Positions 1-17,523 of a stretch of 64,000 nucleotides of DNA are shown piece by piece. A program made the position numbers and the translations under genes. The notes under the pieces are model-generated. The model was not told where the DNA came from and did no database searches. It was given only the letters and a program-made list of their open reading frames with translations. Position 1 is the first letter of the stretch. Each line of letters begins with the position of its first letter. Origin of the DNA: Spirochaetia bacterium (GTDB lineage: Bacteria; Spirochaetota; Spirochaetia; CADAEX01); assembly GCA_963662265.2 (NCBI GenBank), contig CAXXHA010000008.1:64001-128000 (forward strand), given 5' to 3'.

Positions 1-895
1 ATTCTTCATTTCTAAGAGTTCTTACTTGATTTTTTGTATCCATTTTAAATTTTTCAAACACTTTAGGATGTTTTTTTGTAAAACTTGCTAAAAAATCTTT
101 TGTTATATGTCCTATATCTTCTCTTATACTTTTTTTTGTTACATATTTTTTAATTATTTTTCCTTTTTTATTTCGTTTAATTTTTACTAAATGGGAATCC
201 ATTTTTAAATGATCATATTGAAGGAAATTTAAAACAAAGTGTGTTGTATATTTTTGTGGAGTATAATCTTTTGAAAAAGAGACAATTCTTTTTGGTACTA
301 ATAATATTTTCATATTATTAACAATAAGACTTTCAATATATTCATTCTTCCATTCTTGCGTTTTTCTTTCCCAATAAAATCCAGAAGGAACTCCTGCTTG
401 TAAAGGCATTCCCCACAATTTACACTGATTTATAGTATATTCTATTAGATGTTTCTTAATGATATTTGTTGTTAAATCTGACATTTTATCTTTATCTACA
501 CCTTCAACAAATATTCTAAAATCTTCAATGTCTTCAACAATTCCAGTTGTTATTGCTTTACTTTTTAATAAATTATCAAATATCTTTTCAGTATCTTTTG
601 GACCTACACCTCTTCCATTAGGTTTACCTTTAGATAATCCTAAATGTGTTTCATTTGGTTCTTTTAAATGCGAAAAAATGTATTTTGCTTCTTTTATTTG
701 ATTTGACTGTAAATATGTTAGTAATAATGAAAAGAAGTTTTCAAGAGTTCTATTTGCATTATTTGCCCATGCAAAGTCACATGTTCCTAGATAATAAGGA
801 TCAATAAATAATGGCATATCACTATCAATATTGATATCTATAAAATCTAATTCATATTGAGTTTTATCTAGTTTAAAATACTTACTAATATTCAT
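1..895 (-). CDS. Cassette ORF, conserved hypothetical protein (3'-truncated by the window edge)
   Basis: Not in the ORF track. ATG at 895 gives MNISKYFKLDKTQYELDFIDINIDSDMPLFIDP...EPNETHLGLSKGKPNGRGVG...EGVDKDKMSDLTTNII, open to position 1. Confidence 0.8.
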   Translation of the reverse strand, partial: MNISKYFKLDKTQYELDFIDINIDSDMPLFIDPYYLGTCDFAWANNANRTLENFFSLLLTYLQSNQIKEAKYIFSHLKEPNETHLGLSKGKPNGRGVGPKDTEKIFDNLLKSKAITTGIVEDIEDFRIFVEGVDKDKMSDLTTNIIKKHLIEYTINQCKLWGMPLQAGVPSGFYWERKTQEWKNEYIESLIVNNMKILLVPKRIVSFSKDYTPQKYTTHFVLNFLQYDHLKMDSHLVKIKRNKKGKIIKKYVTKKSIREDIGHITKDFLASFTKKHPKVFEKFKMDTKNQVRTLRNEE

Positions 896-992
896 ACTTT
901 TTCCTAAATATTTTAATTATTGATAATATTATAATTGTACACCCAAATATTAAAATCAGACAGATAAAGTTATATGTTACTAAATATTTACA

Positions 993-1098
993 ATATAACA
1001 CCCAGTTGAGCTGTTTGTCTGTCCCGAAGGGTTGGCGCGTGTTCTTGCTCTGCAAGAACCGTGACAAAAGACAAATCTGCTCCAACTTTTTGTTACAC
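993..1098 (-). repeat. attC site (106 bp)
   Basis: atataac-acccagttgag...ctccaac-tttttgttacac; nearly identical to 8626-8731. Confidence 0.92.
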
Positions 1099-1175
1099 GA
1101 TTTATTCTTCAATATTTGAATATATAGTATAAATAATCATTCTTAAGTAATCCCTGATATATTATGTAAATAATT

Positions 1176-1517
1176 TTAAGCCTGGATAACACATCCCCAA
1201 CCATTATATTCTACATCAAATAATTTACTAATACATACAAATAAAGCTGAAATTGAACATAATATATTTTGTTGAATAAGCATATCAATAAAAACATTTA
1301 ATCTATAATCATTTTCATCAATATACTGTATTTCCGTTTTCCCATAATTATTATCTGTAATAAAATCTGCTACAATATTTAGTTTATCATTATCCTCAGA
1401 AGAAAATGTAAAATCTACAGTTCTTGATTTATTAAAATCATCTCCTTTTTTATCCAAGCTAAATAGAGTTTTTGTATCTTCCTCTGATATTTCTAATAAT
1501 TCTTCAACTAATTTCAT
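1176..1517 (-). CDS. RraB-like (ribonuclease E inhibitor) domain protein, cassette-borne
   Basis: L..KGDDF..SRTVDF.F and C-terminal YNGWG pattern of the RraB family; 113 aa. Confidence 0.65.
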   Translation of the reverse strand: MKLVEELLEISEEDTKTLFSLDKKGDDFNKSRTVDFTFSSEDNDKLNIVADFITDNNYGKTEIQYIDENDYRLNVFIDMLIQQNILCSISALFVCISKLFDVEYNGWGCVIQA

Positions 1518-1562
1518 TTTTAGTCCTATATTTATTTTTTATTAATATTTTTAATCTTAAAA

Positions 1563-1784
1563 TTAATAAGCATGATAATAAATAAATAATAATGCAAGAT
1601 AAAGTATTAAAATTAATCCTGACATTATTATTAACATTATTGAATATTTCACTGCAAGTTTGTTAGTAATTGTATATACTTTATAAAAAGCATAAATTGA
1701 AATAGATTTATTTTTTATACCATTTAAACCTTTAATCAAATTATAAAGTATTAAAGTAATAAAAATTAGGCCTAATAAAAACAT
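1563..1784 (-). CDS. Small two-TM hypothetical membrane protein (same cassette as the RraB-like gene)
   Basis: 73 aa with two hydrophobic segments; AGGA upstream. Confidence 0.45.
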   Translation of the reverse strand: MFLLGLIFITLILYNLIKGLNGIKNKSISIYAFYKVYTITNKLAVKYSIMLIIMSGLILILYLALLFIYYHAY

Positions 1785-1918
1785 ATTTATAGTATTCCTA
1801 TTAAAAAATATTTTTTACAATTGATACTATCATATAGTATTTTTTAGATATTTATATCTTTATTTTGACAATCATATAAATAATATTCTTTGTTTTATCT
1901 AAAAAGCCCTGTAAGGGC

Positions 1919-2054
1919 GTGTAACGACGATTTGAGTAGCAAAATTGATCGGCGTCTTCGCCGAATTGTCACGATTCTGGAGTGAGCGATCAGCGAACGT
2001 CTTTAGCCAGAATCGTGACAATAAATTTTGACTACTCCAAATCTCTTGTTATGT
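1919..2054 (-). repeat. attC site (136 bp, divergent type)
   Basis: gtgtaac-gacgatttgagtag...ctactccaaatctctt-gttatgt with an internal stem ttgtcacgattctgg/ccagaatcgtgacaa. Confidence 0.88.
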
Positions 2055-2135
2055 GCCGTTTATTATATATAAATATTCCTACATCTCACTATATAATTCT
2101 TTTTCCCTTTTTTATTACTCCCAATTTATATTCGT

Positions 2136-2600
2136 TTAATGATTCAAAACTATATTTTCATAATAAGATAAAATCTCTTTTTTATTCCAATTTCTTTGTA
2201 TCCATATACTTAAATTCATATGTACTACATGCCATGTTGCTGATACTTTTGTATTTTCAACAACATTTGTCTCTCTCATATGATAGATGGCAATTTTAGA
2301 GGCCATTATTGACATATCAGTAAATGGAAATTCATTTATATTTTCATTTGAACAAGATAAAATACCTCCCATTAACCATTTATACATCCAATATGGAGTT
2401 AATTTATGAAATTCATCAATATCTATATTTGGTTCATATAATTCCCATTTTTTTTCAAAATCTGTTTCAGTTATGGAACTAGATACTTTTTGTGGATAAT
2501 TATCAATATATGATAATGCATTATAATATACGAAAATAGGTAATAAAATTATAAATAGTACTATTATAATAATAACTATACCTAAAATTTTCTTAATCAT
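2136..2600 (-). CDS. Hypothetical protein with N-terminal membrane anchor
   Basis: 154-aa ORF in cassette orientation with a hydrophobic N-terminus. Confidence 0.7.
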   Translation of the reverse strand: MIKKILGIVIIIIVLFIILLPIFVYYNALSYIDNYPQKVSSSITETDFEKKWELYEPNIDIDEFHKLTPYWMYKWLMGGILSCSNENINEFPFTDMSIMASKIAIYHMRETNVVENTKVSATWHVVHMNLSIWIQRNWNKKEILSYYENIVLNH

Positions 2601-3069
2601 TTAGATTACCATGTCTTATTAATCTATTAGTAATTAAAAGTGCAATCATCATAATATATCCAATTATCCATATTGAACTTACCAATTTTATCGTATTTTC
2701 ATTTGCTATTGTAAAATCACTAAATGGCCAAAATATTCTCAAATCTTTATGCATCAAGGAATCTAAAAATAGATGTGATAAAACACCTGCTTCTCCACCT
2801 AATATGTATGAAATTATTGTAACGTCCTTAATTCTTATTTTTTTCATTATTATACCAAATATAATTGATACTGGTAGCATAATTGCGGAACCACCAATTA
2901 TCGTATGGCTGAATCCATGCAATTCGAAGTTACAATCAAAAAAAACAACCAAAAATGGCTGTATATCAATTATTATATTTGATATTACACACATTGGAAT
3001 ATTTATATATTTCTTTAGAATCATCCCAAAGCTTGCATTTTAACCAAAATGTAAAGGTGTTATTGGCAT
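2593..3069 (-). pseudogene. Membrane metal-dependent hydrolase-like protein (YdjM/DUF4184-like) with an in-frame TAA at codon 10
   Basis: ATG 3069 gives MPITPLHFG*, in frame with ORF 2593-3024 (motifs IIDIQP, HGFSHT, SHLFLDSLMH). RBS AGAAGGG lies before 3069. Confidence 0.6.
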
Positions 3070-3139
3070 TCGACCCTTCTTACTTATGAATGTTTTATTA
3101 TATTTCATCTTCTAAAGATGTAGAATCACTTTTTCGTGC

Positions 3140-3250
3140 ACATAACGCCCAGTTGAGCTGCTTCGCAGTACCAATAAAACATACTTCTTTGCTGCTGAAA
3201 TAATCCTGAAAGAAAAAAGTCGCGAAGTCTGCTCCAACTGATTGTTATCT
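3140..3250 (-). repeat. attC site (111 bp)
   Basis: acataac-gcccagttgag...ctccaactgatt-gttatct; same type as 9740-9851. Confidence 0.92.
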
Positions 3251-3259
3251 TTTATATTT

Positions 3260-4315
3260 TTAAAATGGTATATCAATACATTCATCAAATATTTTTTCTA
3301 TTGTAAATTCATCTAATTTTCTCAAGGAATTATAAAGCTTTTGTTTTTTATCAGTTTCGATCTTTTCTAATTTATCCAGATCACCATTTACAACTATTGC
3401 ACGATTACTCTTATTATTAATTAAAAAAGTACAATTTCTATCTAAATTATTTCTACTGTCATGAATTCTAATATTATTTTCTAAATCAATTTCTGAAAAC
3501 ATTGTCATAAAATCATACCAGTTTTCATTTTCTTTTATACTTTGTTTAAATAACTCTATTGAAATTGCATAATTATCTATACTTAATTCTTTTTTAATTG
3601 TAATGAAGAATTGTTTTGCATTATTCTCATTATCTAAATCTAAAATTACTTTATCAGCATCGTCTTTATTAACAGATCTTAATATATTTTTCGTTAAATC
3701 TTCAATTTTTTCATTTATTGCAGAAATTGATGTTAATGCATTTTGAGTTTTTTCGTAAATTTGATATTGACTCCTTTGAACAAGAAAATCATAAAACATA
3801 CCAGACCATTGTTTTCTTAGATAGTTTTTTATTTCATTAGTATACTGAAAACTAAAATATCCATTATTTACTTTTGAAGATCTAACTAAATCTATAAATT
3901 TGAATATATTTATAGCAAAATCTTGTTTTTCAATTGATGGAAAAATAATTTGATTAGCATTTTCTTTATTTTTTATATATATCCGATGATCTTCATTTAC
4001 TTCGTTTTTGACAAATGTAAATACAGGAATATTCAATTCTTTAGCGGCAATATATTCAGCATTGACAATAGATTTATTAATATCTGCAATATAATTACCA
4101 CCAAATCGTCCTCCGATGATTAATATAAATAGCTGACAATTTTGTATTTCTTTTATACATGCATCATGAGTATGTAAATCAGGATGATAAAATACATCGC
4201 CTTTTTCACTAAGAATTGTATCAAATCCGAATGATTTAACAAATTCAATAAGATTATCTCTTACATCTGCTAAATCATAACATGTTGAACTTATAAAAAC
4301 TTTTGGGCAAGCCAT
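3260..4315 (-). CDS. DUF4062-domain protein
   Basis: N-terminal KVFISSTCYDL...C...I..C.LFILIIGGRFG...SIVNAEY signature; AGGAG RBS. Confidence 0.85.
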   Translation of the reverse strand: MACPKVFISSTCYDLADVRDNLIEFVKSFGFDTILSEKGDVFYHPDLHTHDACIKEIQNCQLFILIIGGRFGGNYIADINKSIVNAEYIAAKELNIPVFTFVKNEVNEDHRIYIKNKENANQIIFPSIEKQDFAINIFKFIDLVRSSKVNNGYFSFQYTNEIKNYLRKQWSGMFYDFLVQRSQYQIYEKTQNALTSISAINEKIEDLTKNILRSVNKDDADKVILDLDNENNAKQFFITIKKELSIDNYAISIELFKQSIKENENWYDFMTMFSEIDLENNIRIHDSRNNLDRNCTFLINNKSNRAIVVNGDLDKLEKIETDKKQKLYNSLRKLDEFTIEKIFDECIDIPF

Positions 4316-4449
4316 TTTATACTCCTAATATTTTTAATATTATACTTATTTTAGTTAGATATTAATATTTCTACAACTTTTATATTAATAATATTCATTT
4401 ATGTTAACATAAATACTTATCATTCAAAGTTATTGGACATTTTGAATAA

Positions 4450-4557
4450 AGATAACGCCAAGTTGAGCTGTTTGACTGATCCCGAAGGGTTGGCGCGTGT
4501 TCTTGCAAAAGCAAGAACCGTGACAAAAGTCAAATCTGCTCCAACTTTTTGTTATCC
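4450..4557 (-). repeat. attC site (108 bp)
   Basis: agataac-gccaagttgag...ctccaacttttt-gttatcc. Confidence 0.92.
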
Positions 4558-4665
4558 GTTTCATCATTCCATGATAATATCCATAGACTTAATTAATTTT
4601 ATAAAATAATTTTTTCAATAAACATAATGTTTTTCAGGGTGGAGCTTTTATTATTAATCCTTAAA

Positions 4666-5160
4666 TTACTGAATCTCCTTCCCCATCCAAACAACACTAA
4701 AATATCTTCCAAATTTTTTTCCAATATTTTTAAATATTCCATATTCTATAAATCCATTCTTTTTATGGAATTTTATACTATTATTATTTTCTGAACAAAT
4801 ACTTGCTAATATTTTTTTTATTCCCATTTTTTCAGCTTCAGTTTCAAGTTTATTTAAAGCTTGTTTTCCAATTCCTTTACCTGTATATTCATGATGTATA
4901 AAATACATAATTTCAGCAACTTCGGAAAAAGTAGATAAAGATATATGAGGTTTAAGCATACAAAATCCCAGAATTTTATTTTTATCATCTTTAATTGCAA
5001 ACCCAGGATATTTTTTAGTTACTTCAAGAAAATTTAGGAAATGATCTTTTTTAACAGTATTTTCTCTATATGCAGCTGTTGTTTCTTTTATATAATAATT
5101 AAATATTTCCATTACATCATTTTGATGTTCAATACTTAATTTTTCAAATTTACATTCCAT
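4666..5160 (-). CDS. GNAT N-acetyltransferase (phosphinothricin/YncA-like)
   Basis: IFNYYI..TTA, GKGIG acetyl-CoA motif, N..SIKFH.K.GF...G.KFGR. Confidence 0.9.
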   Translation of the reverse strand: MECKFEKLSIEHQNDVMEIFNYYIKETTAAYRENTVKKDHFLNFLEVTKKYPGFAIKDDKNKILGFCMLKPHISLSTFSEVAEIMYFIHHEYTGKGIGKQALNKLETEAEKMGIKKILASICSENNNSIKFHKKNGFIEYGIFKNIGKKFGRYFSVVWMGKEIQ

Positions 5161-5493
5161 ATTTACTTCTCCACAAATATTATTCTTTTCAATATTTATT
5201 ATTTTTGATTTATAAAATATTTTTCATTAATTCTTAAAGTTGATTTTTTATCATGATGCAAAGTATATAATTTGATAGGTGTAAAATTATAATAATCCTC
5301 TAATAATGACTTATTGGATTTATTAAATATCATATTTTTTCCCATATATCTTATATTATCATTTTTTTCAATATTTCTCTATTTTCTTAATCTCGAAGCT
5401 TGTTAAATATTCTTTTTTATTTCAAAGATCATGGATTTCATAATTTTTACGGTTTATTTTATCAGTTTTGCTATATTTACCGCCCGAAGGGCC

Positions 5494-5686
5494 GGATAAC
5501 ACCAAGTTGAGCTGCACCGGTGGTTCCTGAGCGAAGCGAAGGATTGGCATGTGTTTTTGCATTCATTTCTTTGCTTTGAAAGCAAATCTGGAAGTAGTAA
5601 ATAACTGCTGCAATTCTTTTATAATTCTACTTTTTTCCTGCAAAAACCATGACAAAACCGGGGTCTGCTCCAACTTTTTGTTATAT
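5494..5686 (-). repeat. attC site, long class (193 bp)
   Basis: ggataac-accaagttgag...cctgagcgaagcgaagg...ctccaacttttt-gttatat. Confidence 0.88.
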
Positions 5687-6115
5687 TCTAAATCCTCGCA
5701 AGGTCAAATGGCAAGTTCTTTTTCCCCATTTTCCAACCCGAAGATATTCTGCAGATCTTCAATATTTCTATTCAGAACTGCCAGGCGATCATTTCGGCAG
5801 GGCTCACCGCCCAGACTTTTGCACCCCAATCGTTCGGCGATCCTCGGAAATAATCAAGCCCTTAAATTCCTACCCTATATTGGACGGCATCGGCGCTGGC
5901 CATTTCGCCAAAAAGAAGATCAAGAAAACAAACGCTTTTCAAAATTGAAAGCAATATGTGCGAAATGCACCCGCCCAAAATTTCTTTCCCTAAATTGGCA
6001 GGCTCTGGAGGATGGCGGGCCTCAAAATGCTGCAAGCCATTTCCCAAAAAATCCTTAATTTTTATACGTCTACCAGTTTATTGGCAGTTTTTACGGTTTC
6101 CGCTAACTTGTGTGA
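5687..6115 (-). other. Gene-less cassette, family A (copy A1, 429 bp); candidate structured ncRNA/ssDNA
   Basis: Bounded by gttatat/atataac and GC-richer than the coding cassettes. Near-identical to 13047-13475, but no ORF is conserved between the copies. Confidence 0.8.
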
Positions 6116-6234
6116 ATATAACGGCCGCATGACCTGCAAACCTGGCCTGAGGTAATCCGAAGGATTGGCGCGGTTCTTGCCTGAGCAAGAATCCGTGCCA
6201 AAAAGGTTTGACTGGTCAATGCGATTTGTTAAAT
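6116..6234 (-). repeat. attC site (119 bp, divergent type)
   Basis: atataac-ggccgcatgacc...ggtcaatgcgattt-gttaaat; the internal ttcttgc/gcaagaa stem is shared with the 106-108 bp type. Confidence 0.88.
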
Positions 6235-6249
6235 GCCCATAGTTAGTAA

Positions 6250-6807
6250 TCAATTATATTTTGCTGTAACCAAACATCTTTTACCTGTAGAACCAGATGA
6301 TTTATCAATCTCAATAATAACTTCTCTTATTGATTCAGCAATCTTTTCTGAGACGTTAAGATTTTCTATAACAAAGCAATTATGAAACTCACATTTCTTA
6401 TCAAAGGATATGTGCTCCTCTCCATGGCTGCCTATACCATAACTATCGATCATAATGAACGATGGATGTTTTGACAAAAGCTGATCTAAGACTTCTTCTT
6501 TTAAAATAGTACATTTTGCTCCATACTCAGGTGTTCCATAACCATTTTTCTCCAAATTTCCTGTATAAAGGAGAACCGCCTTACCTGAAATATCAAGCGA
6601 TGATAATTCGTTGCTTAAAGGCATTTTATCCAAGCAGTTTACTGTTACAACCTCTAATTCAAAATGCGTTTTATCTGGTACTTTACTATAACAATCTATA
6701 TGAGTTCCTATATGCCCAAAAGCATTTACAGAATCAGACTGGTTCTTTGCCCAAATATATGAAGGATGTTCTGAGTTAATCTCTATGCTTAATTTTATTT
6801 CATTCAT
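6250..6807 (-). CDS. Cyclase/kynurenine formamidase-like metal hydrolase
   Basis: HIGTHID motif, LLYTG, ID..G, VIENL. Confidence 0.85.
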   Translation of the reverse strand: MNEIKLSIEINSEHPSYIWAKNQSDSVNAFGHIGTHIDCYSKVPDKTHFELEVVTVNCLDKMPLSNELSSLDISGKAVLLYTGNLEKNGYGTPEYGAKCTILKEEVLDQLLSKHPSFIMIDSYGIGSHGEEHISFDKKCEFHNCFVIENLNVSEKIAESIREVIIEIDKSSGSTGKRCLVTAKYN

Positions 6808-6933
6808 ACTGTATACCTCTCAACAAACCTTATATTAATTATCAAAATTGATAAATTCAATATTTAGTCAGTCGTTTCTAGATCTTTTTTAATTTTTCAA
6901 GATTTATCAAAGGCACATGAAAAATCAAGGTGC

Positions 6934-7127
6934 ATTTAACGCCAAGTTGAGCTGCTCCGGCGGTGCCTGAGCGAAGCGAAGGATTGGCATGTGTTTTTGC
7001 ATTTATACTTTGCTGTTAGAAAAATATGTAAAATAAGTGTTTTTTAGCTGCATATTTTTAATAATTCTACTTTTTTTCCTGCAAAAACCATGTCAAAGCC
7101 GGGGTCTGCTCCAACTTATTGTTACAT
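6934..7127 (-). repeat. attC site, long class (194 bp)
   Basis: atttaac-gccaagttgag...ctccaacttatt-gttacat. Confidence 0.88.
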
Positions 7128-7523
7128 TCTAAATCCTCGTAAGATCAATTAGCAAGTTCTTTTTATCCATTTTTTAACCCAAATATATCCTGCAGATCTT
7201 AATTATTTTGCATTTTTTATGCAGGGAGTATACCAAAACATAATCCTTGGATAACCGTCACAATATTTTTTCGGCTCGCTCTTTTTCGGCTGAAAAGCGC
7301 TTAGCTGTTTTTTCATTAAACAGTTATATCTTTTATTTTCGATTGTAAAAGGCTGTCCACACAAAACTATACTCTAACCTCTTTTTGAATCTGGATTGAA
7401 TCAAAACAAAATCGCTTTTCTGCCGAGAGGGTCTCAAGATGATGCATACAATCCTAAAAATATCTTTTTTATCACTTCTACCACAATATCGCCAGTTTTT
7501 ACTGTTTCCAATAACTTTTGTGT
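7128..7523 (-). other. Gene-less cassette, family A (diverged copy A2)
   Basis: Both ends align with A1 (tctaaatcctcg.aag.tcaa.t.gcaagttcttttt; cagtttttac.gtttcc..taactt.tgtg); no credible ORF. Confidence 0.72.
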
Positions 7524-7714
7524 ATGTAACGCCAAGTTGAGCTGCACCGGTATGCCTGAGCGAAGCGAAGGATTGGCATGTGTTTTTGCTTAATTTCTCT
7601 GCTTTAAAAACAGATCTGGAAGTAGTAAATAATTGCTGCAATTTTCGATAATTCTACTTTTTTTCCTGCAAAAAACATGACAAAACCGGGGTCTGCTCCA
7701 ACTTTTTGTTATAT
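7524..7714 (-). repeat. attC site, long class (191 bp)
   Basis: atgtaac-gccaagttgag...ctccaacttttt-gttatat. Confidence 0.88.
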
Positions 7715-8062
7715 TCTAAATTCTCTTTTGTTTTTTTAACAACGCCAAAATAGTTCAAGTATCCAGACTTTCACAATTATATCATAAACCTTTACGTGTT
7801 TCACTTTCAGAAACAAAAGGCCATTATTTTCTTCCTGCGCGGGCTCAGCGTGGGGAGTTGGCCCCATTTCCACGAATCGCGTGGGCAATTATCGCCAAAC
7901 TTCACCACCCTCTATCCCTGCCAGGGTCGTGGAAATGTCTACCCTAGATTGGACTGTCAGGGATCGCCAGGTAGCCAGGACACCAATAATCCGGTCTGAA
8001 CCAATTCCATCCAACTTTTCCCAAATTCAGCTACGTTTTACAGCTCCTCAAATTTTGGTGGA
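7715..8062 (-). other. Gene-less cassette, family B (copy B1)
   Basis: Colinear homolog of 9852-10201; 11-bp stem catttccacga/tcgtggaaatg. Confidence 0.78.
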
Positions 8063-8258
8063 ATATAACGCCCAGTTGAGCTGCTCCGGTGTGCCTGAAG
8101 CGAAGCTGAAGGATTGGCATGTCTTTTTGCATTTATATGTTTGCTTTTAAAACATCAACTTAAGGATTCAAATAACTGCTACAATTTTTTTTATAACTCT
8201 ACTTTTTCTATGCAAAAAGCATGACTAAACCGGGGTCTGCTCCAACTGATTGTTATAT
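8063..8258 (-). repeat. attC site, long class (196 bp)
   Basis: atataac-gcccagttgag...ctccaactgatt-gttatat. Confidence 0.88.
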
Positions 8259-8625
8259 TCTAAACCCTCGCAAGGTCAATTAGCAAGGCAAGATTTATCT
8301 CTTAACGACCCGCCTATACGCAGTTGCTCTTTCAATAATTCGAAACAAAACAGCCAGGAGATCATTTCCTGACAGGCCATACCTCCCCAATTTTTTTGAC
8401 CCTAACTCGAGGGGCATATCTTGGAAATGATCAAGCCCAAGATTTTACTATTCATGAGTGGGCAGGCATTGTCAGGCCCATTTCACACCCCAGATTTTCT
8501 TTCCCTAATGGTCGGCTGCGCAGGATGAAGGGGCTTAAGACGCTGCAAACAATCCCCAAAAAAATCTTTTTCAAACTGTTTACCCGTTTATTGAGTGTTT
8601 TAATGGTTTCCACTAACTTTTGTGA
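8259..8625 (-). other. Gene-less cassette, family A (copy A3, lacks one internal module)
   Basis: Shares cctcgcaaggtcaa, gatcatttc/gaaatgatcaagccc, ttctttccctaa and taactt.tgtgaatataac with A1. Confidence 0.75.
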
Positions 8626-8731
8626 ATATAACGCCCAGTTGAGCTGTTTGTCTGTCCCAAAGGGTTGGCGCGTGTTCTTGCTCTGCAAGAACCGTGACAA
8701 AAGACAAATCTGCTCCAACTTTTTGTTATCT
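8626..8731 (-). repeat. attC site (106 bp)
   Basis: atataac-gcccagttgag...ctccaacttttt-gttatct. Confidence 0.92.
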
Positions 8732-8738
8732 ATTTTTT

Positions 8739-9620
8739 TCAAAAATAAGATATTATTCTTCTTTCTGATGTTATTAATTCAAATATTCTATCATTTTTTC
8801 CCTTATGCATAGTTTTTTTAATAATCCAATTCTTTTTATTGTCAAATGTATATTTATATTTTATTTCATCAGTAACTTTATTATCTTTATATGTTATCTT
8901 AAATCTTATATTTCCATTCTTATATTCTTTTTTACTTTTTAATTCATCATTTATATATTCTTCAGTTGATTTAATTCTTCCTTTTCCATCATAATTATTG
9001 ATAACTACCCAACTACTAACAGCTTCATTAGAAATAATATTAATTTGTCGGATTAAGTCTTTTCCTTCATATTCATTTTCTACTATTATTTTTGTTTTAC
9101 TTTCTGGACTTAAAGTCTTTTGCTTTTTTCTTATAATGAGTTCACCATCGTATTCATAATTTATTAAAGTAATATGCTCTTCTTCCCCATTTATTGTTTC
9201 TTGTTTTATTAAATTTCCAAATTCATCGTATTCAAATGTAGATTCTGAAACCGGGATATCATCTTTTTCAAATATTGTCTTACTATATACGATTTGATCA
9301 TTTTTTTTAGTATTTACAACTATATACTTTCCAAATATTATATCATAACATGATATTTCAATAATATCATTGTTGTACTTACGTTCTTCAGAATAAACAA
9401 TTTCATCATTCAGACTAAATCGTTTATATAAGATTCTTTCCCCATTATTATTTTTTTCTTCAATTTCTCTTTTATACTCATTCCCTAAAATATCACTTTC
9501 AAATATTTCGGTACTCTGTATAATGAAATCGTTTTTTTTATCTGTATTTTCTAGTACACACCCACAAACTATAATTTTCATTATTAGTAGTAGTACTTTT
9601 ACTTCATGTTTTACTTTCAT
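8739..9620 (-). CDS. Hypothetical exported protein with YD/RHS-like beta-hairpin repeats
   Basis: Repeated FEYDEFGNLI, YEYDGELI, NYDGKGRI and YTFDNKKNWI segments; hydrophobic N-terminus with Cys. Confidence 0.7.
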   Translation of the reverse strand: MKVKHEVKVLLLIMKIIVCGCVLENTDKKNDFIIQSTEIFESDILGNEYKREIEEKNNNGERILYKRFSLNDEIVYSEERKYNNDIIEISCYDIIFGKYIVVNTKKNDQIVYSKTIFEKDDIPVSESTFEYDEFGNLIKQETINGEEEHITLINYEYDGELIIRKKQKTLSPESKTKIIVENEYEGKDLIRQINIISNEAVSSWVVINNYDGKGRIKSTEEYINDELKSKKEYKNGNIRFKITYKDNKVTDEIKYKYTFDNKKNWIIKKTMHKGKNDRIFELITSERRIISYF

Positions 9621-9739
9621 TAATTGATCCTACATAATAATTCTCTAATTTTTATTTATTGAAATCGTTTTTAAATCCTTATTTTTATTTAAAATTATAT
9701 CATATTTTCCTTTTATTCTCTAATTTTCCACGAAGTGGT

Positions 9740-9851
9740 AGATAACGCCAAGTTGAGCAGCTTAGCAATCACTGTAAAACATACTTCTTTGCTGCTTGAA
9801 ATAATCCTGAAAGTAAAAAGTCGCGAAGTCTGTTCAAACTTTTTGTTATAT
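9740..9851 (-). repeat. attC site (112 bp)
   Basis: agataac-gccaagttgag...ttcaaacttttt-gttatat. Confidence 0.88.
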
Positions 9852-10201
9852 TCGAAATTCTTTTTCAGTTTTCAAAACAACACCAAAATAGATCAAGGAT
9901 CAAGATCTTCCCAATTATATCATAATCCTTCACGCGGCTCACTTCCCGAATCAAAAGGCCAGTATTTTCTTCCTGCGTGGGCCCAGCGTGGGCCGAGTTG
10001 GCTCCATTTCCACGAATCGCGTGGGCAATTATTTCCCTACTTCACCGCCCTCAATCCCTGCCAGGCCGTGGAAATGTCTACCCAAGATTGGACTGTCAGG
10101 GATCGCCAGGCAGCCAGGACATCATTAATCCGGTCTGAACCAACATCATCCACTTTTTCCAGAATTCAGCTACGTTTTACAGCTCCCCAAATTTTGGTGG
10201 A
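9852..10201 (-). other. Gene-less cassette, family B (copy B2)
   Basis: Homolog of 7715-8062; bounded by gttatat/atataac. Confidence 0.78.
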
Positions 10202-10277
10202 ATATAACGCCTAATTGAGTTGCGCCCTCGCAGGAGCGCAGCGACGAGAAGGCGTCAACTCCAATTTTTTGTTACAC
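10202..10277 (-). repeat. attC site (76 bp, short type)
   Basis: atataac-gcctaattgagttg...caactccaatttttt-gttacac. Confidence 0.9.
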
Positions 10278-10475
10278 GAATTATTCTTCCATATATAGAA
10301 TTTCAATCACACGTGTTTCTCTTAAATGTAAGATTTTTCTTCTTTCTATAAGTTGATATTACTCTACCTGAGGTGCCATGTAAACTTTTTTAATAATATA
10401 CAGCTGTTTTATACCATTTTCAGCATATTTACAGCTGCAGTTAATAATCCTTTAACATAGATAATTTTGAGATTT

Positions 10476-11576
10476 TTAAGCTGTTTCAAGACTGCATTCA
10501 TGCTCTGGAGGGGACTTATTTATTCTTAAATATTCTTTGATAATTTCCGGAATATCCTCATAACTGAACTGATACAGGACTTTCATTTCTGTATTACATT
10601 TCGGGCATTCTTCTTCATACTCTTCTGCTTTTTTTACTTCGAAGCCGAACTTTTCTTTCAGTTCAATTAGTTCTTCTTTATGCCGGTTTGAATAAAGTCC
10701 ATAGTTTCTCACAAGGACTATTCCTTTGGGGGGAATGTGATTAAAAAATCTTTCCATGAATACTTCATATCGTAAGCGGGTTATTTTCTTACCTGTCGGC
10801 TGATATATTATTTCTCTGTTTAACCTATCCCATTCTATTTCTTTTTCGGGATTTACAACTGTTCCGCAAGCTGATTTTGATAAATAGTTGACTATTGATT
10901 CTCCACTATTCTGATGAAAAGTAACATTCCAGCCCCACTCGTCTTTTGTAAAATTATCTATCATTCTATATCTTTTCTTTGCATCATTCGGCAGCTTTTT
11001 TAGAAATCCGCAGCTGAAACTTTTCTTTACTTCTTCCAGTATTTCGCTATAATTCATACTGAAATCATCTTCCCACTCGTGCTCATCATTCATTCCTCCT
11101 GGGGTAATAATACAATGCACATGCGGATGATAACTTAATCCTTCACCTACCGATTGAAAGACCATTGTCATTCCATATTGCAGTCCTTTTTTCTTTTGAT
11201 ATTTCTTAAAGGATTCATTTATAGAGTTGAACAAAGAACTTATGAATGCATGCTTATGATACATCCAGATCATTGTATACATATCAGGGGGCACTATTAC
11301 CAGATGATAATGGCCCATTTCAAGCAGCCGACATTTTATATTTTCCTTCCATTGCAGCTGGTTTTTCTTTCCGCAAACAGGACATCCTCTTTTATTGCAG
11401 GGGTTGTATAATACCATTTTTTCCTTACAATTCGGGCATTCAACAATTCGCCCTCCCATCTTTATTGTGCGGCAGTTTTTATATTTTTCGATTATGTTTC
11501 TGATATCCGACATTTCCGGTGATAATATTTCACCGGTTAATTCATCCAGTAATTCAACGAATTTTACATTTTCCAT
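10476..11576 (-). CDS. IS91/ISCR-like rolling-circle (HUH) transposase with N-terminal Zn-binding domain, carried as a cassette
   Basis: CPNC...CNKRGCPVC Zn domain, HYHLV, HPHVH HUH motif, NYLSK, VRNYGLYSN, C-terminal CPKC and SPP. Confidence 0.88.
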   Translation of the reverse strand: MENVKFVELLDELTGEILSPEMSDIRNIIEKYKNCRTIKMGGRIVECPNCKEKMVLYNPCNKRGCPVCGKKNQLQWKENIKCRLLEMGHYHLVIVPPDMYTMIWMYHKHAFISSLFNSINESFKKYQKKKGLQYGMTMVFQSVGEGLSYHPHVHCIITPGGMNDEHEWEDDFSMNYSEILEEVKKSFSCGFLKKLPNDAKKRYRMIDNFTKDEWGWNVTFHQNSGESIVNYLSKSACGTVVNPEKEIEWDRLNREIIYQPTGKKITRLRYEVFMERFFNHIPPKGIVLVRNYGLYSNRHKEELIELKEKFGFEVKKAEEYEEECPKCNTEMKVLYQFSYEDIPEIIKEYLRINKSPPEHECSLETA

Positions 11577-11650
11577 GCAGCTCTATACTGCATTTTTATT
11601 ATTTCTGCTTCAAAATTATGTAATTTTCTTCAAAAAAGCCCTGAAAGGGC

Positions 11651-11756
11651 GTGTAACGCCCAGTTGAGCTGTTTGACTGTCCCGGAGGGTTGGCGTGTAA
11701 ATTGCGTAAGCAATTTGCATGACAAAAGGCAAATCTGCTCAAACTGATTGTTACAT
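11651..11756 (-). repeat. attC site (106 bp)
   Basis: gtgtaac-gcccagttgag...ctcaaactgatt-gttacat. Confidence 0.9.
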
Positions 11757-11760
11757 GGAT

Positions 11761-12735
11761 TTATTCTCCTATTTCTATATCACTTTTTAATATTTCAATA
11801 TTTTCAATATTTTTATATCTTAAAAATGATTTAAGAGAATGTTCTGCTTTTTTTGAGTTTAATGAGTTACCATAAATTATTTGGTTTATTGGTAGAGGCA
11901 TTTTTGTCGCTTCTTTCTTATTTTCTTTATAAAATGCTAATTTTTGATATGGAATCAGTAAATTATTTTTTTCTCTATAATGTATTTCATTGTTCATTTT
12001 TTTGGGAAATGAAATAATTCTCCATTCCTTTTCTTCTTCGAATTCTTTCTTCTTTAATAATGGTAATATATATACTATTAAGTCTTTTAAATATTCAATA
12101 ATTATCCGAAATTTTAAATTTTCATCAGAAGTAATATTATTTTCAGGAAAATCATTATCTAATTCAATAACTGTATTTTTAAAAATTGTTCTTACAAAGT
12201 CTTTCTGACTTTTATAGTCATAAAGTACTGGTTTTGGTAATAAACATGGGTAAAATTTTGAATCATCTTTTATATCTTCCCAATAAGGTCCAATTATCAA
12301 TTCCTCTGTATTATTAATACTTATACAATATCCTTTTCCATTTTGACCATATTCTCTCCATTGTCCTAACAAATTATTATGTTCACAAAACGATGTTATA
12401 TATATTTCATTATCTAGAATATTATTATCTGTATATTCTTCTTCCATTATAATTAAAAACATGTTTATTGCTGTTTTTACTGTGCTATTTTCATCGAATT
12501 CATCTTCCAATATATCTTTTATAATTTTTAAACCATATTTAATTTCATTAGGATCATTTAAATAACTATAATGAGTAGCCCATAAAGTATTTTCTTCTAA
12601 AATTCCTTTTAATCCATATGCACTTGTATAATGATATAACTTAGTAATTTTATTATTTTTAAAATATTTATTTAATTCATCAGTTATATTATCTAAAAAA
12701 AATAAATATTCTTTTTTATTCTTTTCATTTTCCAC
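11761..12735 (-). CDS. DUF2971-domain protein
   Basis: LYHYTS..GL.GIL....LWAT...LNDPNE, SFC....L.QWREYG..G.G, K...F.EEKEWR. Confidence 0.85.
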   Translation of the reverse strand: MENEKNKKEYLFFLDNITDELNKYFKNNKITKLYHYTSAYGLKGILEENTLWATHYSYLNDPNEIKYGLKIIKDILEDEFDENSTVKTAINMFLIIMEEEYTDNNILDNEIYITSFCEHNNLLGQWREYGQNGKGYCISINNTEELIIGPYWEDIKDDSKFYPCLLPKPVLYDYKSQKDFVRTIFKNTVIELDNDFPENNITSDENLKFRIIIEYLKDLIVYILPLLKKKEFEEEKEWRIISFPKKMNNEIHYREKNNLLIPYQKLAFYKENKKEATKMPLPINQIIYGNSLNSKKAEHSLKSFLRYKNIENIEILKSDIEIGE

Positions 12736-12854
12736 ACTTTACTCCAATATATAGTTCCATTTTTTTAATGATCTTTTATTAGTTCATAAATATATTAAAA
12801 TATTACTTTATCATTATTAGCATAACTTTTACCAACTAGTTTTAAACATATTGC

Positions 12855-13046
12855 ATGTAACACCAAGTTGAGCTGCTCCGGTGGTTCCTGAGCGAAGCGA
12901 AGGATTGGCATGTGTTTTTGCATTCTTTTCTTTGCTGTAAAACAAATCTGGAAGTAGTAAATAACTGCTACAATTCTTTTATAATTCTACTTTTTTTCTG
13001 CAAAAACCATGACAAAACCGGGGTCTGCTCCAACTTTTTGTTATAT
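12855..13046 (-). repeat. attC site, long class (192 bp)
   Basis: atgtaac-accaagttgag...ctccaacttttt-gttatat; near-identical to 5494-5686. Confidence 0.88.
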
Positions 13047-13475
13047 TCTAAATCCTCGCAAGGTCAAATGGCAAGTTCTTTTTCCCCATTTTCCAACCCG
13101 AAGATAAACTGCAGATCTTCAATATTTCTATTCAGAACTGCCAGGCGATCATTTCGGCAGGGCTCACCGCCCAGACTTTTGCACCCAAATCGTTCGGCGA
13201 TCCTCGGAAATGATCAAGCCCGTAAATTCCTACCCTATATTGGACGGCATCGGCGCTGGCCATTTCGCCAAAAAGAAGATCAATAATCCAATTGCTTTTC
13301 GAAAATGAAGCAATATGTGCGAAATGCCCCCGCCCAAAATTTCTTTCCCTAAATTGGCAGGCTCTGGAGGATGGCGGGCCTCAATATGCTGCAAGCCATT
13401 TCCCAAAAAATCCTTAATTATTTAAGCGGTTACCAGTTTATTGGCAGTTTTTACGGTTTCCGCTAACTTGTGTGA
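13047..13475 (-). other. Gene-less cassette, family A (copy A1'), first cassette next to attI
   Basis: Near-duplicate of 5687-6115, including its attC. Confidence 0.8.
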
Positions 13476-13500
13476 ATATAACATTACATATTCAATACTT
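13476..13500 (-). other. attI recombination site (crossover G/TT at 13482/13481 on the minus strand)
   Basis: The last NNNTAAC core (atataac 13476-13482) is followed by non-attC sequence just upstream of intI. The outer boundary is approximate. Confidence 0.75.
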
Positions 13501-13641
13501 TTGTATAATATTTTACCCTATAAAGCCGTTTTTTAAAACTAAGTAAAAATAAACATAATCTGAATCAGAAATACTTAAAAACCTGTTTTAAAATATAAAA
13601 CTGTTGTTTTCCCCTCATAGAAAGAAAACAGGAGGTTTGGT

Positions 13642-14862
13642 ATGACATTAGAGGATTTTTTGATCAACAAAAGCAAAGTAAAAGAACAGCATGTTTTTTA
13701 CTACCTGAAATGGATTTCTGAATATCAGAGTTTCAAATTACATAATAGTGATTCAGATTTAAATGATTTTCTGTTAAATTTGAGCAAAAGATTTGAGTCC
13801 TGGCAGGTTAACCAGGCACAGAAAGCTGTAAACTTATACAAATATTACAACAATACTTATGCAGAAATTAAGCCTGAAATAATTCATCCACCCGATGACT
13901 GGGATAAAGCGATAACTAAAGCAAAAGAGCTATGCAGGTTTCAGTATAAATCGTTAAGCACTGAAAAATCCTATATTTACTGGATAAAATCATTTCAGAA
14001 ATACCTTTCTGGTAAGATTCCGGTTGATGTCAACGAATCAGATGTAAAAAATTTCCTGACATACCTTGCTGTTCAGAAAGGTATCGCCGATTCTACTCAG
14101 AAACAGGCTTTTATTGCACTGCTTTATCTGTTTAGAAATGTTTTAAACAAGGAAATATCAGACCTCAACAATGTTATTCGCTCATCGCAATATAAAAAAC
14201 TCCCCGTAGTTCTCTCAAAAGATGAAGTTGCCCTGGTTATCAGTAAAATGAAAGGAATATACAGAATAATGGCAGAAATTATCTACGGAGGCGGCTTGCG
14301 ACTTTCAGAATGCCTGTCACTGAGGATCAGGGATCTGGATTTTCAGAGGCAGTGTATAGTTGTGCATTCAGGAAAAGGAAACAAGGACAGACTTACTCTC
14401 CTTCCCGAATCTATTGTTCCTAAGTTGCAGAATCACCTGATCATTGTAAGAAAGAAGCATGATAAAGACAGGAGAGAAAAAGTTGAAGGTGTTCCACTTC
14501 CTGATGCGCTGGAAAAAAAGTACAAAAATGCCTGCCTTGAATGGGGCTGGTACTGGGTCTTTCCCTCTGATAAATTATCTTTCGACCCGAGAGAAAAAAT
14601 TATCAGAAGATATCATATATATCCGACAACGCTGCAGAAATCCTTTCATGATGCTGTTGTTCAGTCTGAAATAGCAAAAAATGCATCTATTCACACATTA
14701 CGCCATAGTTTTGCAACCCATTTAATAGAAAACGGTTATGATGTCAGGACAGTACAGGAGCTTCTGGGACATTCAGACATAAGAACAACAATGATTTATA
14801 CACACATTGCGCAAAAGAATAAACTGGGGGTTGTCAGTCCTTTCGATGATCTGAAATTGTAA
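13642..14862 (+). CDS. intI: Integron integrase (tyrosine recombinase, long N-terminus)
   Basis: GLRLSE, GKGNKDR, HTLRHSFATH, LGH and TTMIYTH, plus the integron-specific insert LPDALEKKY...WYWVFPS....DPR....RRYH; AGGAGG RBS. Confidence 0.97.
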   Translation: MTLEDFLINKSKVKEQHVFYYLKWISEYQSFKLHNSDSDLNDFLLNLSKRFESWQVNQAQKAVNLYKYYNNTYAEIKPEIIHPPDDWDKAITKAKELCRFQYKSLSTEKSYIYWIKSFQKYLSGKIPVDVNESDVKNFLTYLAVQKGIADSTQKQAFIALLYLFRNVLNKEISDLNNVIRSSQYKKLPVVLSKDEVALVISKMKGIYRIMAEIIYGGGLRLSECLSLRIRDLDFQRQCIVVHSGKGNKDRLTLLPESIVPKLQNHLIIVRKKHDKDRREKVEGVPLPDALEKKYKNACLEWGWYWVFPSDKLSFDPREKIIRRYHIYPTTLQKSFHDAVVQSEIAKNASIHTLRHSFATHLIENGYDVRTVQELLGHSDIRTTMIYTHIAQKNKLGVVSPFDDLKL

Positions 14863-14970
14863 GCCAGAAATTGAACAAAAAACAATTGAAAACTATTGTT
14901 CCATCATTTTAAGTGAAGATAAACATAAAACTGTTGTTTTGTAAGATATAATATCTACAGTGATATTTTC

Positions 14971-17523
14971 TCATTTTTTCATAAATTTCCTTACATCACC
15001 GGCACTTACAGCTTTAAACAAAGTTGATACACATTTCTCATTGCATTCTTTTGAAGAAATATTTCTAACAGCTTTTTTCACCAGCGGGATCTGAGAGGGA
15101 TTCATACTCAGGCTGTAGATACCTATTCCGATTAATAAAGTTGCGGCATCAGGATCTCCTCCCAGTTCTCCGCAGAGACTTACATCTATTCCCGCATTTT
15201 CTGCAGACAGTACTGTTTTCCTGACAGCACGTATGACAGCTGGATCATATGGATCTGAATAAGAAGCCAGGTTTTTGTTTCCTCTTTCAGCGGCAAGCAT
15301 GTACTGTGTAAGATCATTTGTTCCAATACTGAAAAAATCGCAGATACCTGCAAGTTCGGATGACATAAATACAGATGAGGGTGTTTCAATCATAATTCCT
15401 GTTTCAACCGGCCAGATATGTTTTATCCCTTCAGTCAGGAGGTCTTTATGTACTTCATTTATCAGATTATAGGCTTTTTCACATTCATCATATTGTGAAA
15501 TCATAGGTATCATTATTTTCAAATCGTTATCCAGACCTGCTCGGAGGATTGCCCTGATATGGGTTTTTAAAAGTTTTCTGTAACTTTCATAGATTCTTAC
15601 TCCCCTCATCCCAAGGAAAGGGTTGTCTTCATAAGGAAGTTTCATGTAGGGAATTACTTTATCCCCCCCTATGTCAAGAGTCCTGATTGTGACTGGTCTT
15701 CCTTCCATTATTTTAAAGACTGTAGAGAAAAAGCTGAACTGCTCATCTTCTGTCGGAGGTGAGTTTTTTTCAAGAAAAAGAAATTCTGTTCTTAAGACTC
15801 CAACTCCATCTGCTCCGTTTTTTACCGCTGCAGCTGCTTCTGAAACAGAGGCAATATTTGCATATATATTAATTCTCTTCCCGTCTTTTGTATAAGAAGG
15901 CTCGCGTTCTTCTCGAATAAGTTTTTCTCTTTCTGATATATAAGCCTCTTTTTTCCTTTTCAGTGTATCCAGTGTTTCATGATCAGGATTTACAAAAACA
16001 GATTCAGAATCCGCATCGAAGCAGATATAATCTTCTTCTGTTATTTCACTTAACTTTGAATATCCTCCCAACGCAGGGATTCCCAGTGATTTAATGAGTA
16101 TTGCAGCATGTGACGTAGCATCACTGTCAGACAGAATTATACCTTCTGTCTTTTCCGGATCCAGCTGCAGAATCTGTGACGGCGAAAGCCATTTTGCAGC
16201 AATGACTGCTCCAGAAGGTATTTCATGATATTCCTGCTGTCTGTTTCCTTTGAGAAATGAATAAACACGTGATGCGACATCTCTGACATCAGCAGCTCTG
16301 GCTTTCAGATATTCATCTTCAAGTCTTTCATACCTCTCAATAACATCATTTGCAGAAATACTCCAGGCAGATGATGCATTATAATTTTCATCACGTATTT
16401 TTCTTATACTTTCATCTTTCAAGTCAGGATCTTCAAGAAGAAAAAGATGTGTTTCTATGATCTGCATTTTATCTTCTTCAATATTATTTTTTCTTACAGT
16501 TTTTTTAATTTCAGCTTTTACACTATCCAGTGCAGAGTGAAGCTTTTCAACTTCTTCCTCGCTGTTATCCGCTTTTTCCGCTTTTTTCTCAAGGCTGATA
16601 CTGCCGGGAAACCAGACTTTTCCCAGTGCAATGCCTGAAGAAAGCTTTAAAAGACCTTTTCCGGTTCCTTTTAAAATTTGTTCTTCACGGCTTATACAGG
16701 TGTTATTGTCCGGAGTTATACTCTGAGCCTCACCAGTTCCTTCCCTGATTATTCCCATCTTCTCACCGAAATTTTCCCCGACAAGTAAGTCAAGCTCTCT
16801 GAAAAAAGCATTTGAAGATATTTCATCGCTAAATGCTTCAACAAGTATTTCGTCATTTTCTAGCACTTCAAGAGAAGAAAGACGGTTAAAACTACGCCCA
16901 TTTACAGGTCCCCTGTTTTTTGTCAGATTTGTAACTTTTACATTACTGCATCCTGAATCTGATACTGCTTTTATGAATTTCGCTGCAGGTCTTGCATGAA
17001 GTCCGTTTTCATTAACAATAGTATATTTTTTTGCAAATCCGGTTTCTTCAGATTTAAATATTGTTTTATCACCTGAAGACACAGTAGATTTACTATCTGC
17101 AGTTAATTCTGATTCCCCCCCCAGGTATTCAATTTTCTGATATAAGCTTTCTTCTGCTTCATTTATAGAATTTTTGATAGTAGCCCCGGCACCGCACTGT
17201 ACAGCTGCGCTGATAACCCCTTCGGCAAGAGGCGCCGATGAAATATGAATATTTGATGCTTTTTCAGGATCCATGAAATCGACTGCTGTTTCAGAACTTA
17301 TGAGTGCACTTCCCATATCTGCAAATATGACTACACCTTCTTCAGAATAAACAGATTCAACGGCATCCATTATATCTGTGGCATCTGTTCCATATTCATC
17401 ATCTTTACCTTCAAATCCCCCCGCATATGCAACAGGAATATTTTTCCCGCCCATTTCAATTGCAAGTTCAGCCAGGCTCTTTGCAAGGATTCTGCTGTGA
17501 GAGACAATAACAATACCGAACAT
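14971..17523 (-). CDS. dhaM: PTS-dependent dihydroxyacetone kinase phosphotransferase (DhaM EIIA + HPr + full enzyme I)
   Basis: GIVIVSHS (EIIA), GLHARPA (HPr), TSHAAIL, GVLRTEFLF and FFSIGTNDLTQY (EI). Confidence 0.9.
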   Translation of the reverse strand: MFGIVIVSHSRILAKSLAELAIEMGGKNIPVAYAGGFEGKDDEYGTDATDIMDAVESVYSEEGVVIFADMGSALISSETAVDFMDPEKASNIHISSAPLAEGVISAAVQCGAGATIKNSINEAEESLYQKIEYLGGESELTADSKSTVSSGDKTIFKSEETGFAKKYTIVNENGLHARPAAKFIKAVSDSGCSNVKVTNLTKNRGPVNGRSFNRLSSLEVLENDEILVEAFSDEISSNAFFRELDLLVGENFGEKMGIIREGTGEAQSITPDNNTCISREEQILKGTGKGLLKLSSGIALGKVWFPGSISLEKKAEKADNSEEEVEKLHSALDSVKAEIKKTVRKNNIEEDKMQIIETHLFLLEDPDLKDESIRKIRDENYNASSAWSISANDVIERYERLEDEYLKARAADVRDVASRVYSFLKGNRQQEYHEIPSGAVIAAKWLSPSQILQLDPEKTEGIILSDSDATSHAAILIKSLGIPALGGYSKLSEITEEDYICFDADSESVFVNPDHETLDTLKRKKEAYISEREKLIREEREPSYTKDGKRINIYANIASVSEAAAAVKNGADGVGVLRTEFLFLEKNSPPTEDEQFSFFSTVFKIMEGRPVTIRTLDIGGDKVIPYMKLPYEDNPFLGMRGVRIYESYRKLLKTHIRAILRAGLDNDLKIMIPMISQYDECEKAYNLINEVHKDLLTEGIKHIWPVETGIMIETPSSVFMSSELAGICDFFSIGTNDLTQYMLAAERGNKNLASYSDPYDPAVIRAVRKTVLSAENAGIDVSLCGELGGDPDAATLLIGIGIYSLSMNPSQIPLVKKAVRNISSKECNEKCVSTLFKAVSAGDVRKFMKK

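Follow-up and report, generated by a model that had tools for sequence, protein, structure and literature searches.

A long chromosomal integron may comprise dozens or even hundreds of cassettes, beyond the reach of a single promoter, and both the transcription of such arrays and the persistence of gene-less cassettes have been studied almost only in Vibrio. The stretch of DNA described here, a window of 64,000 nucleotides (C8:64001-128000) from the 3.77-Mb, 41-contig assembly of a Spirochaetia bacterium, raises the same question in a distant phylum: what are the integron cassettes that carry no gene, and what keeps them in the array? A first-pass annotation of the window had proposed a dedicated class of mobile non-coding cassettes, amplified by the integron and serving as structured RNAs, single-stranded DNA (ssDNA) decoys or protein-binding platforms. 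Part of that proposal holds, since the units are attC-bounded, mobile and without a conserved reading frame, and 14 of 15 have paralogs; the large structured RNA does not. Our own reading, preferred but tentative and a little short of probable, is that the gene-less cassettes are internal promoter cassettes, probably with selfish spread in addition. The reading that comes nearest to the literature, a sense-strand promoter at the cassette 3' end, had not been considered in the annotation.

The integron array and its gene-less cassettes

The genome under study is referred to as G000 and its two congeneric Spirochaetia genomes as G001 and G002. The left 13.5 kb of the window is the proximal end of a chromosomal integron, whose integrase scores 382.6 bits against TIGR02249 (cut-off 265) and contains the Pfam domains Phage_integrase and Phage_int_SAM_4. 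The integrase gene intI reads away from the array, whose cassette genes occupy the minus strand and diverge from it, in the usual integron layout. On that strand, each cassette begins at the TT of a GTTRRRY box, and its own attC closes it on the low-coordinate side. The end of attI, TTGAATAT..ATG|TTAT, is common to the three genomes in alignment. From the attC at 997 to attI at 13481, the window contains 14 complete cassettes. The array extends upstream of the window to give 47 cassettes, a lower bound for the contig, from C8:23153 to attI at C8:77481 (about 54 kb), with an extra attC at 17372. The main features are listed below.

13642-14862, plus strand: intI, integron integrase, reading away from the array
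13482-13641, no strand assigned: attI region, crossover G|TT at 13482/13481
12861-13481, minus strand: A4, first cassette of the array, family A (A1 type); body 13043-13481, own long attC 12859-13049
9746-10207, minus strand: B2, family B; body 9848-10207, own attC of the 104-nt type 9744-9854
8069-8631, minus strand: A3, family A (A3 subfamily, which lacks one 63-nt hairpin module); body 8255-8631, own long attC 8067-8261
7530-8068, minus strand: B1, family B; body 7711-8068, own long attC 7528-7717
6940-7529, minus strand: A2, family A (A2 subfamily, without the ATTTC/GAAAT units described below); body 7124-7529, own long attC 6938-7130
5500-6121, minus strand: A1, family A; body 5683-6121, own long attC 5498-5689

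Inspection of ORFs and attC sites confirmed that six of the 14 complete cassettes, those annotated at first pass, have no credible gene. All six are flanked by ..ATAAC/GTTAT.. cores and are genuine attC-bounded integron cassettes. Alignments and nhmmer searches recovered the two families already recognized, which prove larger when the whole array is considered: 15 of the 47 cassettes are gene-less, 10 belonging to family A and five to family B. Outside the array, an nhmmer profile search covering the entire genome found no copies of either family. The gene-less cassettes were rightly described as richer in G+C than the coding ones, with values of 0.32-0.46 against a mean of 0.25 (range 0.20-0.34) in the other 32 cassettes and 0.385 in the genome.

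Homology from end to end, as first reported, holds within subfamilies but not across family A. A1 is 95% identical to A4, 69% to A3 and 56% to A2, and among representatives of five A subfamilies, column identity reaches 0.80-0.83 over the first 40 positions and 0.77-0.78 over the last 40, falling to 0.12-0.46 between them. Approximately 100 nt at each end are common to the A subfamilies, while the middle is unrelated. Within family B, B2 is 87% identical to B1, which recurs upstream on the contig in two further, fully identical copies. The extended ends GTTATATTC...GAATATAAC, which had been taken as distinctive of these cassettes, lost that status on comparison, because an R'/R'' complement of 8-9 nt is found in each cassette of the array, with a sequence of its own (such as GTTACACGA...CGTGTAAC and GTTATCTAT...TAGATAAC). 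Pairing of R' with R'' once a cassette has been excised would account for such a complement between the first bases and the R'' of attC.

A long attC of 182-189 nt is present in 13 of the 15 gene-less cassettes. It corresponds to the ordinary attC of the array (about 98 nt) enlarged in the apical loop by about 85 nt of AT-rich, poorly conserved sequence; the attC sites of B2 and B3 are 103-104 nt long, a type shared by some coding cassettes. Three sites folded as DNA gave z-scores of -6.92, -7.05 and -4.86, as expected for attC, the last being that of the long attC of A1. The 104-nt attC of B2 (9744-9854) differed from the other attC sites tested, its ssDNA fold being at the level of shuffled sequences (z 0.00). 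The site with z -7.05, at 6120-6230 in the window, belongs to the cassette of a putative cyclase (ORF 6250-6807) and is of a G+C-rich type unlike all other attC sites of the array. Array attC sites such as 8626-8736 and 5494-5691 also fold with a conserved short side hairpin, CCC-GAA/AAA-GGG or a longer equivalent, which yields a three-way junction instead of the usual simple stem.

That the gene-less cassettes have no conserved frame emerged from several kinds of evidence. Copies differ by insertions and deletions that are mostly not multiples of three (1, 2 and 4 nt, besides others of 3 and 63 nt), and substitutions between copies show neither codon-position bias nor an excess at third positions (for example, 16/16/12 and 37/35/44). 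A six-frame search across copies found no conserved ORF, no small ORF with a common stop runs through all nine distinct A sequences, and the ORFs of family C, a related family of G002 described below, change frame from copy to copy. Within the cassette bodies, the ORFs measure 36-58 aa in sense and 44-78 aa in antisense orientation, which exceeds the 150-bp limit for non-coding cassettes in Boucher 2006, and none of them is conserved; most bodies fall below the 210-bp ORF limit of the promoter-cassette definition, the A3 type and B3 having antisense ORFs of 78 aa. Longer ORFs, up to 159-169 aa, start in an attC and are not conserved either. Among them are the 169-aa ORF at 5549 and its 124-aa counterpart at 12912, both of which exist as first described. 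Pfam gave no match for any of the seven ORFs tested. In a collection of 5.8 billion proteins, the 169-aa ORF of A1 has no relative, and the 159-aa ORF of B2 has a single one (148 aa, 74% identity over 57% of the length), which is probably another copy of the cassette called as a gene.

It is very improbable, on these grounds, that the cassettes are decayed protein-coding cassettes or hide an overlooked small protein. Some Vibrio gene-less cassettes are degenerate genes (Blanco et al., PMC11014356), several A copies keep an open stretch to the same stop just before R'' (...DLQNIFGLENGEKELAI*), and the antisense frames are unusually open, with 0-4 stops. The low number of plus-strand stops, however, fits the A/G-rich composition of the sense strand, and the stop-free plus-strand frames of B2 and B3, one in each, read their conserved 3' part in different registers. 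Comparisons with the own genome by tblastx and blastn gave nothing meaningful outside the array, with one marginal tblastx match. No frame is common to all copies.

The gene-less cassettes stand out in their paralogy, since 14 of 15 have a paralog in the array compared with 4 of the 32 others. B1 (three copies, 100% identical), A3 (two) and A2 (three, with 0-1 substitutions) lie between different neighbors, the limits of identity falling at the R' boxes, and from such copies we infer that each cassette moves as one unit, cut at G|TT. First place at attI is held by A4 in G000, by a member of family C in G002 and by a coding cassette in G001. In G002, family C is represented by at least six copies and the first cassette, with bodies of 472-474 bp and a G+C content of 0.41-0.42, and is related to family B. 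A second cluster of at least 13 attC sites in G002 (C1:925001-965000), approximately 1.9 Mb from its intI (C1:2825153-2826364), holds one A copy and three C copies.

The presence of homologs in both congeners, as a BLAST comparison among spirochetes revealed, shows that the families are not confined to this array. Their distribution is narrow. Among 61 relatives, the cassette bodies occur only in the two congeneric genomes, and among 401 genomes of the class they occur in three, all of one genus (BLAST and the pattern of the 3'-end/attC junction, with counts of 13, 1 and 3). The family A pattern has two matches in 185,579 species genomes, both in Spirochaetia bacterium metagenome-assembled genomes, which are the congeners. 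Two metagenome contigs returned by a pattern scan have no family homology and were set aside as chance. Other sequencing runs contain 8-30% of the present stretch, and among the 14 runs listed none with RNA was found. One copy, at C8:32799, is 97% identical to the copy in G001, while the IntI proteins of the two genomes are 71% identical, which suggests recent exchange of the cassette between species.

Such findings would also be expected from selfish or neutral non-coding cassettes, whose attC and adjoining ends would be good IntI substrates without any gain for the host, the ends serving as cis recombination context and the middle as unconstrained filler. We consider this explanation possible, although rather unlikely. 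Conserved ends with a free middle are the pattern of non-autonomous mobile elements, and the excess of paralogs, the identical copies in different contexts, the family members placed first at attI in two of three genomes, the distinctive long attC and the exchange between species all agree with it; Boucher et al. proposed the same option for Vibrio (PMC1382264). Against it, the 5' and 3' blocks show no conserved pairing beyond the 9-bp R'/R'' common to all cassettes, and families A and C share a 3' block despite different attC types. In addition, the stems of the ATTTC/GAAAT hairpin units described below vary less than the loops (14 of 90 variable columns versus 113 of 278, Fisher p 7e-6, with one stem delimited too narrowly by the script), which speaks for constraint inside the supposed filler.

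Another cassette of the window carries a mobile element gene of its own: that at 10208-11656 (G+C 0.34) contains an ORF at 10476-11576 on the minus strand for an IS91-family Y2 transposase, with the Pfam domains Y2_Tnp and Zn_Tnp_IS91.

Promoter-like sites at the cassette 3' ends

The best-conserved segment across subfamilies, common to the families, comprises the final ~36 nt ahead of R'' and, read in sense, has the form TTGC[CT]A, 17-18 nt, TA[GA][AT]AT. The sites located in the window are as follows.

13045-13074, minus strand: promoter-like site of A4 (TTGCCA, 18 nt, TAGAAT), abutting R''
8257-8286, minus strand: the same terminal site in A3, from the motif scan
7126-7155, minus strand: the same terminal site in A2, from the motif scan
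5685-5714, minus strand: the same terminal site in A1, from the motif scan
7713-7742, minus strand: terminal promoter-like site of B1, with TTGTTA as -35
7776-7804, minus strand: extended -10 site of family B, TGATATAAT, about 75 nt before attC

The terminal site lies in the same place in all five distinct 3' ends of family A in G000, in the A copies of both congeners and in B1, scoring 8-10 of 12 and pointing into the next cassette. Its -10 variants, TAGAAT, TAAAAT and TAGTAT, always keep A2 and T6. In family C, TTGCTA and TAGTAT can be recognized by eye in five of the six 3' ends listed, the remaining one, Cb_16169, having TTGATA; the scan ranks TTGCTA, 17 nt, TAGTAT best only for the first cassette of G002, and in the other C copies it prefers an overlapping TTGAAA or GTGAAA, 17-18 nt, GATGAT. 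The extended -10 site of family B is identical in all three variants, B1, B2 and B3.

We propose that a sigma-70-type promoter may lie at the 3' end of the cassettes that lack a gene, in sense orientation, from which transcription would run through the cassette's own attC into the next cassette or cassettes. Internal promoters of this kind would be useful, as the array is far too long for a single Pc promoter. In family B, the extended -10 site would be a further place of initiation. IntI would move and copy these cassettes by means of their attC sites, and their abundance and first position at attI may also reflect selfish amplification. The promoter activity is predicted from conserved motifs, and any benefit to the host is likewise putative.

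Several observations weigh against this proposal. Promoter-like sites between 5400 and 13700 number 34, compared with 34.8 expected from shuffled sequences, and in the work of Blanco et al., prediction in silico did not agree with the promoters measured in Vibrio (PMC11014356). The terminal site of B2 and B3 reads TCGAAT, with no good -10 hexamer at that place. The extended R'' box takes in half of the -10 hexamer, whose conservation could thus be owed to recombination. The gene-less cassettes are often adjacent to each other (A3, B1 and A2), which would be wasteful for promoters, and most are richer in G+C than the genome, unlike the AT-rich cases of Vibrio. Finally, a promoter leaves the equally conserved 5' block of family A and the ATTTC/GAAAT units unexplained. 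As to the opposite strand, an antisense promoter was considered for the attC loop and for the family A 5' block, and was rejected because such sites are not conserved.

ATTTC/GAAAT hairpin units and RNA structure

Gene-less cassettes of all three families contain perfect inverted repeats of 8-13 bp with ATTTC/GAAAT, enclosing a loop of 47-53 nt. One or two such hairpin units are found in A1, A3, the G002 copy of family A and family B, and two in family C. None were found in the A2 subfamily or in the G001 copy, though both keep the ends of family A. The units located in the window are listed below, without assigned strand.

13261-13326 and 13147-13215: inverted repeats of the two A4 units
10005-10076: B2 unit, equivalent to that of B1
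8360-8432: inverted repeat of the A3 unit
7865-7937: B1 unit, CATTTCCACGA, 51 nt, TCGTGGAAATG
5901-5967: A1 unit 1, CATTTCGC / GCGAAATG, loop 51 nt
5786-5855: A1 unit 2

The pattern CATTTC-N44-62-GAAATG occurs 20 times in the genome, 10 of them in A and B cassettes. Stems are preserved by compensatory changes: CCACG/CGTGG becomes CCACA/TGTGG in B3 and CAT/ATG in family C, and CATTTCGC/GCGAAATG becomes CATTTCACAC/GTGTGAAATG in G002. The core of the stems, TGGAAATGG, is identical to both termini of an IS21-family insertion sequence (IS), which inserts at varied sites with 5-bp target duplications. The left end of this element agrees with the 3' block of A1 in 21 of 23 positions, a match that exceeds 300 random and 300 shuffled controls, while its right end has no extended similarity (score 10.5, reached by 30% of random 45-mers). 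The IS itself is 2472 bp long, encodes an IstA-like protein of 520 aa and an IstB-like protein of 246 aa, and is present in five full copies in the genome; copies at C8:51061-53532 and C8:20477-22947 lie in the array upstream of the window, and one copy splits an attC.

A miniature inverted-repeat transposable element (MITE) or another miniature element derived from IS21 was considered and rejected, because all copies of the cassettes are attC-bounded and lie inside the array, the inverted motifs face opposite to the IS ends, and the similarity is limited to the 9-nt core and the single match of 21 of 23 positions. Further candidates were dismissed by eye: a group II intron or retron RNA (the cassette sequence shows neither matching ends nor a reverse transcriptase), DnaA boxes (at best 8 of 9 positions in one unit type) and a sigma-54 site (spacing off by one). 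A separate 11-mer, CCCTAnATTGG, occurs 10 times in the genome, nine of them in A1-type and B1 cassettes (at 5873, 5988, 7942, 13233 and 13347 in the window and at upstream equivalents), and the similar TACCCTATA is located in attI, about 35 nt from the crossover.

The hairpin units bear on the view that the cassettes encode a regulatory RNA or form a protein-binding platform, in which the ~70-nt units would function as domains of an RNA or as paired sites bound by a protein that the host or an IS encodes, whether in trans or on the array itself. Their recurrence with similar stem and loop lengths, their concentration in A and B cassettes, the compensatory changes, the lower variation of stems than of loops and the core identical to the IS21-family termini are all in its favor, as is the precedent of Xcc1, an ORF-less cassette that encodes a small RNA (sRNA; as cited in PMC6557892). 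The view has to contend, however, with the subfamilies that lack units yet retain the family ends, with loop sequences and inner folds that are not conserved between families, and with the failure of the similarity to extend at the right end of the IS. We regard it as unlikely. An ssDNA decoy or a protein-binding platform in particular is speculation, whose only lead is the recurring inverted repeat.

Folding gives no support for a large conserved RNA structure. The whole elements A1 and B1, folded as RNA on either strand, gave z-scores of -0.20, +0.17, -0.44 and -1.73, values that dinucleotide shuffles also reach. For nine A sequences, the consensus fold is sparse, with 41 pairs in 482 columns, nine of which belong to the R'/R'' pairing; 91.8% of its cells are paired (87.0% in shuffles) and both partners vary in 11 pairs, in a fold derived from the same sequences. 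In the window at 1-15000 and an array segment of G002, Rfam (E up to 1) returned only two chance matches to eukaryotic families, MIR7729 (23.2 bits, threshold 92) and snoR66 (22.7 bits, threshold 43), and thus no family at its gathering threshold, and a scan for tRNA and transfer-messenger RNA found none. The early description of these cassettes as structured, and the structured RNAs derived from it, accordingly found little support.

A combined reading treats the cassettes as modular regulatory devices, each with a 3' sense promoter and one to three units of about 70 nt, which would be sites for a protein of the host or of IS21 type or would fold within the RNA. Such a device might couple expression of the array to that factor, or recombination at attI where a cassette of this kind sits first, as in two of the species. 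We find this arrangement improbable.

Relation to known integron cassettes

Gene-less cassettes were already known, as the first-pass annotation had stated for Vibrio, and the papers on Vibrio (PMC1382264, PMC11014356) and Treponema (PMC6557892) bear this out. The present array is a clean example of that class in a new lineage, with families restricted to one genus. According to Boucher et al. 2006, non-coding cassettes make up 6-49% of Vibrio arrays; they typically have paralogs, their close homologs are confined to vibrios, and they were proposed to be either selfish elements or promoters and regulatory RNAs, the same alternatives as here (PMC1382264). The spirochete cassettes resemble those described there in the absence of a conserved ORF, the frequent paralogs within the array, the restriction of homologs to relatives and the conservation across species. 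They differ in their host, which belongs to a different phylum, in their unrelated sequences and in their G+C content, which is mostly higher than that of the array and often than that of the genome. Subfamilies that share only their ends, an attC of about 185 nt in 13 of 15 and the ATTTC/GAAAT units further set them apart from that Vibrio description (PMC1382264).

The preferred reading, that of internal promoter cassettes, has its closest counterpart in the Vibrionaceae, where Blanco et al. 2024 reported that most of 29-30 Vibrio cassettes without a gene show sense-strand promoter activity (PMC11014356). The cassettes of both groups are gene-less, a few hundred bp long and part of a long sedentary array, with a predicted sense promoter directed toward downstream cassettes. 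Promoter activity was measured in Vibrio, whereas here it is predicted. The start sites described for Vibrio have no fixed place, in contrast to the one conserved site right at R'' in the spirochete families, and the Vibrio promoter cassettes are AT-rich with attC sites of 101-127 bp (PMC11014356).

Among spirochetes, Tansirichaiya et al. 2019 showed that ORF-less Treponema cassettes drive gusA, and discussed a first-position cassette as a 'genetic clutch' (PMC6557892). Compared by description only, the oral Treponema integrons share with the present one a spirochete host and ORF-less cassettes, one of them in first position, and the 'genetic clutch' idea fits A4 at attI (PMC6557892). A different parallel is sRNA-Xcc1, a trans-acting sRNA encoded by an ORF-less cassette of Xanthomonas campestris (as cited in PMC6557892); the likeness would be that the cassette product is RNA, and the difference is that Rfam gives no match here.

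After Vibrio, the array offers a second clean case from a distant phylum, one third of it gene-less and made up of few families with one sharply placed promoter-like site. This shared site makes the promoter-cassette idea directly testable, and non-coding families defined in this way allow one to ask whether cassettes of this kind act as regulators, live on the integron as parasites, or do both.

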